A stretch of 64,000 nucleotides of DNA from Escherichia coli (GCF_003991155.1 NZ_CP031295.1); one strand, 5' to 3'. Counted from the stretch's first letter, positions 40,202 to 46,789 are shown. The notes: generated by a model from the sequence alone, not told the origin. Translations and numbers: made by a program.

Positions 40202-40558
40202 ATGCTGAGCAGAGAGGACTTTTACATGATAAAGCAAATGCGCCAGCAGGGCGCGTACATTGTCGATATTGCGGCTCAGATTGGTTGCTCTGAACGGACG
40301 GTCAGACGCTACCTCAAATACCCTGAACCGCCAGCCAGAAAGACCCGCCACAAAATGGTTAAGCTGAAACCGTTTATGGATTACATCGACATGCGCCTGG
40401 CAGAGAATGTCTGGAATAGCGAGGTTATCTTCGCGGAGATTAAGGCAATGGGTTATACGGGCGGACGTTCCATGCTGCGTTACTACATCCAGCCCAAACG
40501 TAAAATGCGTCCGTCAAAAAGAACAAGGAGAGAGTTACCGGTTAAAAGAGAAACGTAA
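40202..40558 (+). pseudogene. istA: IS21-family transposase istA, N-terminal fragment
   Basis: MLSREDFYMIKQMRQQGAYIVDIAAQIGCSERTVRRYLKYPEPP... HTH of IS21 IstA; ends after approx 118 aa. Confidence 0.7.
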
Positions 40559-40689
40559 AGCTGGAGTGCTGACCAAAAACACAACGCCAATCAGTGATGA
40601 TGAAATGGTGCAAAGCGGACAGCATCAGTAACGAAAGTATTTAGCGGGCATGAAAATGGCAAATAACGGTCAAACATCGTGGCGTTGAC

Positions 40690-41205
40690 ATAGTCGCAGT
40701 TTTGGTGAACGAATCACAGACAAAGATGCCATGCACCAGGCTGTTGTTCAGTATGCAGAGCGGGCCGCAGAGAAACTACGTGGGGAGCGTCAGTATTGCC
40801 GGCAGGTGACGACATTTGTACGGACATCCCCCTGAACCCTGTTACAGCAATGCCGCTGTGGAAAAGCTTTCATTGCCCACACAGGACAGCCGGGACATTA
40901 TTGCCGCCGCATGCAGAGCCTTAAACCATGTCTGGCGTGAAGGGTACCGCTATATGAAGGCAGGAGTCATGCTGGCTGATTTCACACCATCGGGTATAGC
41001 GCAGCCGGGATTATTTGATGAAATCCAGCCCCGTAAAAACAGTGAAAAGTTAATGAAAACACTCGATGAACTGAACCAGTCGGGAAAAGGGAAAGTGTGG
41101 TTTGCGGGGCGAGGAACCGCCCCTGAATGGCAAATGAAACGGGAAATGTTGAGTCAGTGTTATACAACTAAATGGCGAGATATTCCCCTGGCCAGGCTGG
41201 GTTAG
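40690..41205 (+). pseudogene. Y-family DNA polymerase subunit (umuC/impB-like), 3' fragment
   Basis: ...QYCRQVTTFVRTSP...GVMLADF...PEWQMKREMLSQCYTTKWRDIPLARL resembles UmuC C-terminus. Confidence 0.6.
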
Positions 41206-41384
41206 TTCAGTCATCTCCGAACATATTTTCAGCGTTTCTTCTGGTCTGGTCTTCACCGTCATTTCTCGACAGACTCTGCTCTGTAAGGGGAGTACTGCAA
41301 TCCACAGACGTATGGAGACCAGATTGTTTTTCCAGTAATTCAATCAATTTCTTTTCAACCGAAAAAGCAGGTAATGACTCCAAC

Positions 41385-41888
41385 TTATTGATAGTGTTTT
41401 ATGTTCAGATAATGCCCGATGACTTTGTCATGCAGCTCCACCGATTTTGAGAACGACAGCGACTTCCGTCCCAGCCGTGCCAGGTGCTGCCTCAGATTCA
41501 GGTTATGCCGCTCAATTCGCTGCGTATATCGCTTGCTGATTACGTGCAGCTTTCCCTTCAGGCGGGATTCATACAGCGGCCAGCCATCCGTCATCCATAT
41601 CACCACGTCAAAGGGTGACAGCAGGCTCATAAGACGCCCCAGCGTCGCCATAGTGCGTTCACCGAATACGTGCGCAACAACCGTCTTCCGGAGACTGTCA
41701 TACGCGTAAAACAGCCAGCGCTGGCGCGATTTAGCCCCGACATAGCCCCACTGTTCGTCCATTTCCGCGCAGACGATGACGTCACTGCCCGGCTGTATGC
41801 GCGAGGTTACCGACTGCGGCCTGAGTTTTTTAAGTGACGTAAAATCGTGTTGAGGCCAACGCCCATAATGCGGGCAGTTACCCGGCAT
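41385..41888 (-). CDS. insB: IS1 InsB
   Basis: 167-aa InsB frame. Confidence 0.9.
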
Positions 41889-42082
41889 CCAACGCCATTC
41901 ATGGCCATATCAATGATTTTCTGGTGCGTACCGGGTTGAGAAGCGGTGTAAGTGAACTGCAGTTGCCATGTTTTACGGCAGTGAGAGCAGAGATAGCGCT
42001 GATGTCCGGCGGTGCTTTTGCCGTTACGCACCACCCCGTCAGTAGCTGAACAGGAGGGACAGCTGATAGAAACAGAAGCCAC
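41807..42082 (-). CDS. insA: IS1 InsA
   Basis: 91-aa InsA variant. Confidence 0.9.
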
Positions 42083-42437
42083 TGGAGCACCTCAAAAACA
42101 CCATCATACACTAAATCAGTAAGTTGGCAGCATCACCGATCCCTTCATTTAGTGACTGCCCCTGGGTTTTTCATGCTCTCCTGCGTCCTAGAGAACTTGC
42201 CAATAACCTACATTATTTTTGCTTTGCCATTACCAATCGTCCTGAACAAGTTCATTTTAAAGCCAAAGCGCTGCCCAACTTTTATCCTCAATACCACATC
42301 GTCAGCAGGAAATAACCTAATCCCTGTGTTGGGATCTTATAATCGCTAATGATAATTATTTACATTTTATAGCTTCTGCTATAAAACATAGTAGTTGCTA
42401 TGTTTATTCTAATTTTGCTCACTATAGGTACTAAATC

Positions 42438-44179: not shown

Positions 44180-45033
44180 ACGTGCTACTGGAACCCTTCA
44201 GCTATGAATATATGCTCAATGCGATGTGGGTCTCGGCGATGGTCGGCGGTCTCTGCGCTTTCCTGTCATGCTATCTGATGCTAAAAGGCTGGTCGCTGAT
44301 TGGCGATGCGCTGTCGCACTCTATTGTCCCGGGTGTTGCGGGGGCATATATGCTGGGGCTTCCGTTTTCTCTGGGAGCCTTCTTTTCCGGCGGACTGGCA
44401 GCGGGCAGCATGCTGTTTCTTAACCAACTCACTCGCTTAAAAGAAGATGCCATCATCGGCCTGATCTTCTCGTCCTTTTTTGGCCTGGGGCTGTTTATGG
44501 TGTCATTGAACCCGACATCCGTGAACATTCAGACCATCGTCCTGGGCAATATTCTGGCAATCGATCCGGCGGATATCCTGCAACTCACTATCATTGGCAT
44601 TCTCTCGATCATCGTGCTTTTTTTCAAATGGAAAGATCTTATGGTGACCTTTTTCGACGAGAATCACGCCCGTGCTATTGGATTGCATCCGGGCAGATTA
44701 AAAATCCTCTTCTTCACCCTGCTGTCGGTTTCGACCGTTGCGGCGCTGCAAACGGTTGGTGCCTTTCTGGTGATCTGTCTGGTGGTGACTCCCGGTGCAA
44801 CAGCATGGTTGTTAACCGATCGTTTTCCCCGCCTGCTCATGATTGCTGTAACTATTGGCAGTGTGACCAGTTTCCTCGGCGCGTGGGTCAGTTACTTTCT
44901 GGACGGCGCGACAGGTGGAATCATCGTGGTGGCGCAGACACTGCTGTTTCTTTTAGCATTTGTCTTTGCGCCCACCCATGGGCTTTTGGCAAATCGTCGG
45001 CGTGCGCATAAAGCGCTGGAGGATCGCTCATGA
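44176..45033 (+). CDS. sitC: Mn/Fe ABC transporter permease SitC
   Basis: 285-aa multi-TM permease, overlapping stop/start with sitB. Confidence 0.85.
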
Positions 45034-45887
45034 TGGCATTATTACTGGAGCCACTGCAGTTCACCTTTATGAGTCACGCACTGCTGATTTCACTGGTAGT
45101 TTCCATACCCTGTGCGCTGCTGTCGGTCTTTCTGGTCCTGAAAAGTTGGGCACTGATGGGTGACGCGATGAGTCATGCGGTTTTTCCTGGCATCGTGCTT
45201 GCCTGGATTCTGGGGTTACCTCTGGCTACAGGGGCATTCGTCGCCGGAGTATTCTGTGCGGTGGCGACGGGATACCTGAAAGACAACAGCCGAATCAAGC
45301 AAGATACAGTGATGGGGATTGTTTTTTCTGGCATGTTTGCCGCAGGTCTGATCTTGTATATTGCAGTCAAACCAGACGTACATCTTGATCATATTCTTTT
45401 CGGCGACATGCTCGGGATAACCATCGGCGATATAATCCAGACGGTGATTATTGCCGGACTGGTTACACTTGTTATTAGCGTAAAATGGCGGGATTTTTTG
45501 CTGTTCAGCTTTGATTATCAACAGGCGCAGGCAAGCGGTTTGCATACGAGATGGCTGCATTATGGGCTGCTGTGCATGGTCTCCCTGACCATTGTGGCGA
45601 CGCTGAAAGCGGTAGGTATCATTCTCTCTATTTCTCTTCTCATTGCGCCTGGTGCCATTGCGGTACTCCTGACACAACGCTTTCATATTGCGCTCCTGCT
45701 GGCGACTGGCATATCGATATTGGTCTCAATGACTGGTGTCTGGCTGTCCTTTTTTATCGACAGCGCGCCAGCTCCGACAATTGTTGTCTTATTCGCGGTC
45801 ATGTTCATCATGACGTTTACCGTTACCAGCATCAACGCACGCACAAAGGAAAATGCCGAACCACGGGATTTGTTATCATCCGATTAG
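45030..45887 (+). CDS. sitD: Mn/Fe ABC transporter permease SitD
   Basis: 285-aa multi-TM permease paralogous to SitC. Confidence 0.85.
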   Translation: MMALLLEPLQFTFMSHALLISLVVSIPCALLSVFLVLKSWALMGDAMSHAVFPGIVLAWILGLPLATGAFVAGVFCAVATGYLKDNSRIKQDTVMGIVFSGMFAAGLILYIAVKPDVHLDHILFGDMLGITIGDIIQTVIIAGLVTLVISVKWRDFLLFSFDYQQAQASGLHTRWLHYGLLCMVSLTIVATLKAVGIILSISLLIAPGAIAVLLTQRFHIALLLATGISILVSMTGVWLSFFIDSAPAPTIVVLFAVMFIMTFTVTSINARTKENAEPRDLLSSD

Positions 45888-46282
45888 CAGAACACTCGGC
45901 CAGCAACATCCGCTTATTGGCGATGCGCTTGAACGAATAATGCACAGACTTATGATTCTGATAAGTTTTGTTGCCAGAGAGTTGCTGCGGACTGGATAGC
46001 AAGTGATGTCGATTCTCAGGGGTAGCAAACAGCGCAGTAAAATGAGGGAAGTAGTGGCAAAACATAGAGAAAATTGGGGGGCGAGGGCCAGTGATGTAAA
46101 AAACCACGCTAAGAGTTTAATTAATTGTTTGTATTGAAGTTTAATGATCTTAACTCACCCTTAAGAATATCTTCCGGTAACGAAGACGTATAATGCCCCA
46201 GCATATTTATATGGCTATGTATCAGCAGCGATAATCTTGCCGGATGCTACTCCTCAGGAGTTTCTCCCGATTTGCGAAGATG

Positions 46283-46370
46283 TGACAACGCCTCCTGCAT
46301 GTAAAGTGTGTTTCACAGCACAACCGCATTGGTCACCAGCCCCAGAGCACCTAGTTGATCTTCCTGCCCT
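46283..46370. other. short Tn3-family tnpA remnant
   Basis: approx 80 bp similar to tnpA segment at 4360-4420. Confidence 0.4.
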
Positions 46371-46371
46371 T

Positions 46372-46789
46372 AACGGTAGCTGAAGATGACTGGGCTGGAT
46401 GGAAAATCCTGCATGGTGCATTGGGAGAGCAGATAGAATTGGTTGGCGACGATCTGTTTGTGACCAACGTAAAGTATATTCAGCGCGGCATTGACGAAAA
46501 CCTTGCCAATTCAGCATTGATTAAACTCAACCAGATTGGTTCCCTGAGTGAAACCTTTGATGCGGTACAACTTTGCCATGACAACAACTGGGGCACCTTT
46601 ATCTCACACCGCAGTGGTGAGACAGTGGACAGCTTTATCGCCGATATGACAGTTGCAATGCGCGCAGGTCATCTCAAAACGGGAGCTCCATGCCGGGGTG
46701 AGCGTATTGAAAAATATAACCAGCTTATGAGAATTGAGGATGAACTGGGTTCATCGGCGCAATTTGCTGGAAAGTCTGCCTTTAAATGA
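46372..46789 (+). pseudogene. eno: enolase (eno) C-terminal fragment
   Basis: ...[10 protein letters not shown]...[46 protein letters not shown] resembles enolase C-terminus. Confidence 0.75.

Follow-up and report, generated by a model that had tools for sequence, protein, structure and literature searches.

The gene fragments that lie around the sitABCD operon of a ColV/IncF-type Escherichia coli virulence plasmid raise the question of whether they are scattered scraps of earlier cargo or the traces of a few specific events. We followed up this question in a 64,000-nt stretch of E. coli DNA (the window, to which coordinates refer unless a locus is named), over the interval from 40,202 to 46,789. 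A preliminary description had noted a truncated istA, a umuC-like fragment, a scrap of Tn3-family tnpA and a truncated enolase gene (eno') there, and had attributed them to repeated insertion and deletion around the virulence genes. All four are present at the positions assigned to them, with profile matches far beyond chance and in agreement with annotation by the Prokaryotic Genome Annotation Pipeline (PGAP), and they are indeed non-functional records of insertion and deletion. The remnants therefore stand, while the picture of many independent scraps gives way to fewer, more specific events. It is very probable that the fragments around sit are real but ordinary inert scars, left by four mobile-element events and some small deletions. 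Transposition, illegitimate deletion and insertion sequence (IS)-mediated recombination gave rise to them, none is able to encode a working protein, and every component of the interval belongs to a known kind.

Positions 38000 to 50000 of the window are 100% identical to many complete plasmids, and of 5,426 complete E. coli genomes, 835 contain the stretch from 39500 to 47600 with at least 80% coverage. Annotation was taken from one 100%-identical plasmid (NZ_CP019282, L001; window coordinate = locus coordinate + 35499), in which PGAP places the same pseudogenes at the same positions. The order there is RepFIB repA, istA', istB', DUF4113/UmuC', IS1A, sitABCD, tnpA', eno', crcB, a major facilitator superfamily transporter gene (shiF) and iucA. 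The tnpA and enolase fragments, which had been taken for independent remnants, are the two edges of one 4,241-bp deletion within one transposon, whose parts are as follows.

46070 to 46075, no strand: AAAATT, left copy of the flanking direct repeat, a putative target duplication (sequence read).
46076 to 47701, no strand: Tn3-family transposon remnant of 1,626 bp, comprising left inverted repeat, tnpA', deletion junction, eno', small open reading frame (ORF), crcB and right inverted repeat (from the inverted repeats and the undeleted form at the same site).
46076 to 46113, plus strand: left Tn3-type terminal inverted repeat, 38 bp, GGGGGGCGAGGGCCAGTGATGTAAAAAACCACGCTAAG (repeat search, sequence read).
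46121 to 46380 (PGAP pseudogene 46121 to 46369), minus strand: tnpA', 3' end (~82 codons) of a Tn3-family transposase gene, interrupted by two stops and running up to the deletion junction (profile matches).
46379 to 46380, no strand: junction of the 4,241-bp deletion, with GC microhomology (alignment offsets against L009, junction sequences).
46376 to 46789, plus strand: eno', the last 137 of 414 codons of a fluoride-operon enolase paralogue (profile, comparison with K-12 Eno, full-length gene in L010).
46840 to 47058, plus strand: small hydrophobic ORF of 72 codons between eno' and crcB, MMKAHV... (MMKAHVFVISMLTGIVV...), with GGAGG upstream (unannotated, no family match).
47130 to 47510, plus strand: crcB, intact fluoride channel gene, 126 amino acids (NCBIfam NF010792 over its full length, 175.8 bits against a cut-off of 125).
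47665 to 47701, minus strand: right Tn3-type terminal inverted repeat, 37 bp, with a one-base deletion relative to the left (repeat search, comparison of contexts).
47702 to 47707, no strand: AAAATT, right copy of the flanking direct repeat (sequence read).

The deletion is seen by comparison with an undeleted 5.87-kb form, which occupies the same site in E. coli IncFIB/FIC plasmids (L009 and L010), with ppaC-usp-eno-crcB between sitD and shiF-iuc. Window positions 41369 to 46380 correspond to 2198 to 7209 of L009 at 98.8% identity, and 46379 to 52000 to 11449 to 17070 at 99.9%. The offsets of these high-scoring segment pairs, together with the 2-bp microhomology, give the size of 4,241 bp; they show one single gap, both edges of which share the dinucleotide GC. 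According to the PGAP annotation of L010, the segment missing from the window comprises a tnpA pseudogene (frameshifted, N-terminus missing), a recombinase fragment (N-terminus missing), a fluoride riboswitch, and genes for a manganese-dependent inorganic pyrophosphatase (ppaC), a universal stress protein (usp) and a full-length enolase of 414 amino acids, which in this form is the third gene of a riboswitch-controlled fluoride-resistance operon. The riboswitch (RF01734) lies at 9050 to 9124 of L009 with an Rfam score of 43.8 bits, while an Rfam scan of the whole window returned no fluoride riboswitch and no other family. Likewise, ppaC and usp are absent from the window and eno is down to 137 of its 414 codons.

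The undeleted form was reached from the fragment itself. A search with the Eno' protein returned mostly truncated metagenomic fragments, and led through P0003 to a draft-genome locus (L003) in which an RF01734 riboswitch (44.5 bits) is followed by a family II pyrophosphatase gene, a near-full-length enolase gene, the same small ORF and crcB; a plasmid search with this module then recovered the E. coli IncFIB/FIC plasmids. The fluoride module of L003, and that of an Enterobacter hormaechei plasmid (L015), are both ~87% identical to that of the window. Among the 813 genomes that carry the eno'-crcB stretch (at least 80% coverage), 24 hold the undeleted segment, so that the deleted form (~790 genomes) exceeds the intact operon form by roughly 30 to 1. 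One example of an undeleted plasmid is pE166_2. Comparison with related ColV plasmids, which had been suggested as a check, thus found the same remnants in pS88 and the undeleted transposon at the same site in 24 genomes.

The paired ends identify tnpA', eno', the small ORF and crcB as parts of one 1,626-bp unit, because they bound all four. The left terminal inverted repeat is positioned just past the tnpA' stop and its inverted copy past crcB, and a repeat finder extends the similarity of the two ends to ~62 bp inward. Three independent contexts (the window, L003 and L015) diverge exactly past the ...CCCC terminus at 47701; as L003 and L015 are homologous up to ...CCCC and divergent right after it, 47701 is the true end of the element. 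The order in L003, where a tnpA lies downstream of crcB, was considered as an alternative layout and rejected, since homology stops at the terminus of the inverted repeat; there, the fluoride element is nested inside another Tn3-family tnpA. In the window, tnpA' matches positions 330 to 389 of 389 of Pfam DDE_Tnp_Tn3 (E=7e-16) and positions 892 to 952 of 954 of the NCBIfam Tn3 transposase profile (E=7.9e-18). The complete transposase (~1,000 amino acids) is not in the window, which holds the last ~82 codons with stops, nor is a resolvase gene; a 3' fragment of tnpR is found in L010, and in L015 the fluoride operon is immediately preceded by an intact recombinase (tnpR) gene of like orientation. 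H115, which is 92% identical to the tnpA body, was rejected as an intact transposase, as it is itself a fragment trapped between IS26 copies, and the search yielded no intact transposase. An identical 6-bp AAAATT stands outside both ends, compatible with a 5-bp duplication plus one coincidental base. The target is a quasi-palindrome, CATAGAG-AAAATT-CTCTCTG (46063 to 46075 plus 47702 to 47714), with 6 of 7 arm positions complementary, and may, before the insertion split it, have formed a small hairpin between sitD and shiF, which are convergent.

A sequence of three steps would produce this arrangement. A Tn3-family transposon would have inserted between sitD and shiF, duplicating AAAATT, with the layout inverted repeat, tnpA (reading leftward), res, tnpR (reading rightward), fluoride riboswitch, ppaC, usp, eno, small ORF, crcB and inverted repeat. 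The recombinase gene upstream of the operon in L015, together with the partial copies, points to this Tn3 layout with the fluoride operon in passenger position. A first deletion would then have taken out res together with the 5' ends of tnpA and tnpR on either side of it. The second, of 4,241 bp and by illegitimate recombination at GC, took the remaining tnpA body and tnpR', along with the riboswitch, ppaC, usp and 277 codons from the start of eno, leaving the last 82 tnpA codons back-to-back with the last 137 eno codons, an intact crcB and both transposon ends.

The enolase fragment had been described as chromosomal-type, a reading that the comparisons do not sustain. It matches positions 287 to 422 of 425 of TIGR01060 (E=8e-59), and at the amino acid level it is 51% identical to K-12 Eno, with 53% for the full-length plasmid enzyme; the same identity figures have been published for plasmids of neonatal meningitis E. 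coli (NMEC), where the genes were read as metabolic and supercoiling/camphor-resistance genes (PMC4723317). The suggested comparison with the E. coli chromosome gave no nucleotide match of eno' to the chromosomal eno of the 5,426 genomes. By blastn, the eno'-crcB stretch matches in 982 of these genomes, and 1,005 of the 1,021 places are on plasmids, from which it follows that housekeeping eno and crcB are not matched. Judged by sequence, eno' is a fluoride-operon paralogue and not the chromosomal-type enolase of E. coli. Chromosomal contexts retrieved as P0007 (L004 to L008), in which a usp-eno pair stands under a fluoride riboswitch, support the paralogue class and were rejected as the source. 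In L004, the enolase is 82% identical and there are two fluoride riboswitches (6440 to 6514 and 11619 to 11681), one upstream of usp-eno; the other, on the opposite strand, precedes a pair of MutS_V-domain genes, an unusual riboswitch-associated cargo.

The first residue of Eno' immediately follows the position to which E. coli Glu290 aligns. Missing from it are the N-terminal domain, the catalytic residues Glu168 and Glu209, and Asp246 and Glu290, two of the three metal ligands. With the N-terminal domain, the catalytic glutamates and two metal ligands lost, Eno' cannot be an enolase.

By its sequence, crcB is the transposon's sole functional survivor and is possibly active. The plasmid CrcB is 53% identical to K-12 CrcB, and one protein accession (WP_001318207.1) is common to the 100%-identical plasmid, the undeleted form and pS88. 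As the riboswitch and promoter were lost with the 4,241-bp deletion, the plasmid crcB is left without either. A promoter scan for crcB gave matches at chance level, and no promoter is claimed; a search for terminator-like sites on the plus strand between sitD and crcB found none. If transcribed at all, crcB is probably reached by read-through from the sit promoter. On pS88, quantitative reverse transcription-PCR (qRT-PCR) gave fold inductions in urine ex vivo of 84 for sitA, 26 for sitD, 8 for eno', 4 for the small ORF and 4 for crcB, and in vivo of 776, 140, 19, 10 and 6, respectively (PMC3438092 Table 1). Read-through from the sit promoter would be a simpler explanation of the "urine-induced enolase" reported for that plasmid (PMC3438092).

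A further possibility, to which we give rather low probability, is that the deletion took crcB out of fluoride-riboswitch control and exposed it to read-through that starts at the Fur/MntR-regulated sit promoter, thereby providing a second, divergent fluoride channel under metal starvation in urine or serum. Were this true, it could explain why the deleted form (~790 genomes) far outnumbers the intact operon (24). The chromosomal crcB is required for growth of uropathogenic E. coli in human urine with 0.074 mM fluoride (PMC10936160), and a benefit from a second fluoride channel is therefore conceivable.

The gene status of the small ORF at 46840 to 47058 is doubtful. It is open in L015 and frameshifted in L003, has a weak third-codon-position bias, and corresponds to pS88016, a "conserved hypothetical protein". 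Just beyond it, at 47062 to 47100 and ~30 nt upstream of the crcB start, lies an 11-bp inverted repeat (AACAATATCAG ... CTGATATTGTT), which L003 and L015 retain for the most part. Two transcripts have been reported for the Enterobacter operon, and the repeat may be where one gives way to the other; alternatively, it may be a regulatory site.

The left side of the interval records separate events, and its parts are listed here with the sit operon.

40101 to 40690, plus strand: IS21 internal-deletion derivative, 590 bp, with both ends kept (TGTCAG... and ...TTGACA; identity to the intact IS21 in L011).
40202 to 40531, plus strand: istA', the N-terminal ~110 codons of the IS21 transposase, helix-turn-helix region only (NCBIfam NF033546 positions 2 to 104 of 294, E=1.3e-16; PGAP pseudogene).
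40524 to 40631, plus strand: istB', the final ~35 codons of the gene for the helper ATPase of IS21 (annotated by PGAP as "AAA family ATPase, missing N-terminus"; the DNA matches the 3' end of IS21).
40691 to 41205 (PGAP 40692 to 41205), plus strand: impB/umuC', residues ~251 to 424 of a plasmid-type Y-family polymerase, starting exactly at the IS21 right end (alignment to L012, UmuC profile).
41207 to 41369, minus strand: parR/stbB-like 3' end, the last 53 codons and stop of a 138-amino-acid plasmid partitioning/stability protein, cut by IS1 (translation against L012).
41370 to 42137, minus strand: IS1 (IS1A type), complete, 768 bp, with both inverted repeats (sequence read, PGAP).
42438 to 45887, plus strand: sitABCD, intact iron/manganese ATP-binding cassette transporter, given as context (PGAP of the identical plasmid).

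Compared with an intact 2,131-bp IS21 copy (L011 2501 to 4631, with a TAAC duplication there), window positions 40101 to 40525 are IS21 nucleotides 1 to 425 at 99.3% identity and 40525 to 40690 are nucleotides ~1966 to 2131 at 98.8%, with 1,540 bp lost internally. The NCBIfam IstB match of istB' is weak (positions 236 to 252 of 253). The derivative is flanked by CAGG and TAGT, with no 4-bp target duplication; since the two do not match, at least one IS21 flank has been replaced. Immediately to its right, the polymerase fragment matches positions 250 to 296 and 301 to 422 of 422 of the UmuC profile (E=3.6e-23 and 3.4e-62). Its DNA aligns at 98% identity with the 3' part of a polymerase gene that is intact in L012 (424 amino acids), and the alignment shows an 11-bp deletion at 40834/40835 that explains its frameshift. 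The backbone block of L012 runs dinI-like, umuD and polymerase genes, followed by convergent parR/stbB-like and parM genes, and 3,657 of the 3,709 places matched by umuC' are on plasmids. From these matches, umuC' is the plasmid-backbone impB of a dinI-umuD-polY / parR-parM block, not former cargo as had been supposed. The adjoining fifth fragment, listed neither by PGAP nor in the preliminary description, translates to residues 86 to 138 of a WP_001278818-type protein in L012 with one substitution. Also unlisted in that description were the istB' scrap, both IS21 ends and both Tn3-type terminal inverted repeats. Neither umuD, the 5' part of the polymerase gene, other parts of the backbone block nor other IS21 sequence was found anywhere in the window.

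These features would be accounted for if IS21 interrupted the backbone impB at about codon 250 and the DNA to its left was then replaced, so that no target duplication remains and RepFIB sequence now abuts. IS21 would further, at some point, have lost its 1,540 internal bp and impB' 11 bp, and IS1 would have cut the neighboring parR/stbB-like gene.

The IS1 copy at 41370 to 42137 has the 768-bp length, the terminal inverted repeats and the insAB' frame with programmed frameshift of that element, and no 9-bp target duplication (GAAAAAGCA versus GATCCCTTC). The fragments had been said to flank IS1 copies, which holds for this one; the other copies lie outside the interval, at 35332 to 36099 (direct), 57620 to 58387 (inverted) and 3658 to 4133 (partial). 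Pairing of the 9-bp flanks across all four copies, as possible traces of a composite or inversion history, revealed no shared duplication. The inverted pair at 41370 to 42137 and 57620 to 58387 encloses sitABCD, the transposon remnant, shiF, iucABCD and iutA. On pS88 (L013 4063 to 21090), the sit-iuc block between inverted IS1 copies has the opposite orientation relative to RepFIB-IS21-impB', with the same remnants, an inversion already noted in the literature (PMC2626276). In L009, colicin genes, not impB', stand to the left of the corresponding IS1. The inversion in pS88 and the colicin genes in L009 identify this IS1 as a recombination point where the left neighbor varies, and recombination between the inverted copies at 41370 and 57620 would flip the whole sit-iuc block between plasmids.

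Several other explanations were weighed against that of a few mobile-element events. The frameshift in umuC' and the stops in tnpA', and nothing further, might suggest intact genes broken merely by sequencing or assembly errors in the window. However, the missing parts amount to hundreds of codons rather than single-base errors, hundreds of complete plasmids, sequenced independently, share the sequence at 100% identity, and the recurrence of the 39500 to 47600 stretch in 835 genomes means that the truncations are not sequence errors. The chance of this is practically nil, and the intact genes that error correction might have restored, a possibility raised in the preliminary description, did not appear, as ~800 independent plasmid assemblies of E. 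coli carry all four fragments in identical form. That the fragments are four independent cargo scraps, with an enolase captured from the E. coli chromosome and many separate insertions and deletions, has in its favor that all four are genuine pseudogenes and that the IS1 copies without target duplications indicate repeated rearrangement. It is nonetheless highly improbable, and for eno' and tnpA' largely refuted already, given the 51% identity to K-12 Eno with no nucleotide match to chromosomal eno, the position of tnpA' and eno' directly at either edge of one 4,241-bp segment, which 24 genomes retain, and the almost exclusive matching of umuC' to plasmid genes (3,657/3,709 places). A third proposal, that the truncated enolase ORF encodes a functional protein such as a urine-induced virulence or metabolic factor, follows speculation on ORF17 of pS88 (PMC3438092). 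The frame is open over 144 codons (46355 to 46789) and conserved across ColV plasmids (PMC4723317 and our genome matches), and its transcript rises ~8-fold in urine ex vivo and ~19-fold in vivo (PMC3438092 Table 1). Yet in its induction the transcript follows the upstream sit genes at a lower level, as read-through would give, and the frame is no better conserved than the non-coding DNA beside it (99.9% identity over 5.6 kb). The ORF moreover covers just the last third of the enzyme (profile positions 287 to 422 of 425), its 5' end was created by an illegitimate deletion, and its start just past the Glu290-aligned position leaves out the N-terminal domain and residues that serve catalysis and metal binding. 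A functional product is therefore very improbable.

The transposon insertion itself could be replaced by recombination, homologous or res-mediated, between two transposon copies on different molecules, which would have joined sit to the aerobactin region. Tn3-family elements form and resolve cointegrates, and no empty site was seen anywhere in the collections searched, both of which favor this route. It remains improbable in view of the identical AAAATT on both sides, within a quasi-palindrome that reads as one continuous target; an identical 5-mer would arise by chance about 1 time in 1,000. Insertion of a single transposon followed by deletion remains our preferred reading, and some observations weigh against it or the steps attached to it. 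Tn3-family elements typically duplicate 5 bp of target, the repeat here is 6 bp, and a coincidental match is made likelier by the AT-rich, partly palindromic target. A reconstructed sitD/shiF junction of 240 bp, for which at least 80% coverage was demanded, returned no record of an unoccupied site (...CATAGAGAAAATTCTCTCTG...) in 5,426 E. coli genomes or 72,556 plasmids, so that the insertion is read from the inverted repeats and flanking repeat alone. No copy with a complete tnpA-res-tnpR was recovered, and the full original layout has been pieced together from three partial copies. Likewise, read-through into crcB depends on one qRT-PCR table from the related plasmid pS88 in which several values are not statistically significant.

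Additional structures were observed in and around the interval. A perfect 23-bp inverted repeat with an 8-nt loop lies at 47576 to 47629, just 3' of crcB and inside the transposon end; its left arm differs in L003 and L015, so that the perfect form is specific to the window's lineage, and a 21-bp deletion lies just upstream. As it has no T-run, it is not a classical terminator. At ~4131 to 4726 lies another remnant of a Tn3-family tnpA, with 95% identity to pieces of tnpA in L003, which represents a second, unrelated Tn3-family scar; within 3658 to 4726, a partial IS1 (nucleotides 293 to 768, inverted) ending at 4133 abuts a classical Tn3/Tn2-type end (GGGGTCTGACGCTCAGTG...). The direct IS1 copies at 35332 to 36099 and 41370 to 42137 bracket an integrase gene, RepFIB repA, the IS21 derivative, impB' and parR', a composite-transposon-like arrangement around the replicon in which no shared target duplication was seen. 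In the RefSeq record of pS88, iucD is annotated as frameshifted (L013 7512 to 8845).

The value of this analysis is mostly that of annotation clean-up, which keeps eno', crcB and impB' from being over-interpreted. In several papers, the ColV "putative enolase" and "camphor-resistance CrcB" are counted among the core genes of metabolism or plasmid stability, and in one the enolase ORF is speculated to be of help in urine. In addition, the GC junction at 46379 to 46380, the IS21 internal deletion, the 11-bp impB deletion and the IS1 inversion are discrete markers with which ColV plasmid lineages can be ordered.

Among known systems, the element is closest to the Tn3 family (layout tnpA reading leftward, res, tnpR and passenger reading rightward). 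It shares 38-bp inverted repeats with a GGGG start and a ACGCTAAG-like end, a DDE Tn3-type transposase that ends beside one inverted repeat, and a putative short AT-rich flanking duplication; in L010 and L015, the serine-recombinase gene points away from tnpA and is followed by the passenger genes. Unlike Tn3-type elements with bla or mer, its passenger is a fluoride-riboswitch operon, the window copy is a 1.6-kb immobile remnant, and the flanking repeat reads 6 bp. A transposon name was not found in the open-access literature searched, and the element is not assigned to a named transposon; it is apparently an unnamed Tn3-family member spreading a fluoride-resistance operon among Enterobacterales plasmids. 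For the passenger, the counterpart is the operon ppaC-uspA-eno-gpmA-crcB-orf5249 of Enterobacter cloacae FRM, an intact operon of this type shown experimentally to give high fluoride resistance under riboswitch control (PMC5533749). The undeleted E. coli plasmid form (riboswitch-ppaC-usp-eno-crcB) has the same order and is likewise plasmid- or island-borne beside transposases. Unlike the FRM operon, it is without gpmA, and its DNA identity to gpmA-containing versions is ~70%; in the window, just one third of eno and crcB are left and the riboswitch is gone.

On the left side, the IS21 derivative is 99% identical to IS21 (2,131 bp, istA-istB) over both ends, with terminal sequences intact, but differs in having no functional transposase or helper, as 1,540 bp of istA/istB are deleted. 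The adjoining impB' is 98% identical to the 3' 40% of the polymerase gene of plasmid impCAB / umuDC-like SOS mutagenesis operons (IncF/IncI) and has the same convergent parR/parM neighbors; in contrast to those operons, the window has no dinI-like gene, no umuD and none of the first 250 polymerase codons, and the remainder is frameshifted. Overall, the region is that of the IS1-bounded aerobactin/sit region of ColV plasmids (pS88, pAPEC-1, pAPEC-O2-ColV), with genes, remnants and inverted IS1 pair as in the window and, in pS88, the sit-iuc block oriented oppositely relative to RepFIB. Published ColV plasmid annotations already include the truncated enolase, the fragment of ImpB and the CrcB-like gene (PMC3438092, PMC4723317); the ColV plasmid literature consulted treats eno' and crcB as metabolic and supercoiling genes, not as the transposon cargo to which the present comparison assigns them.

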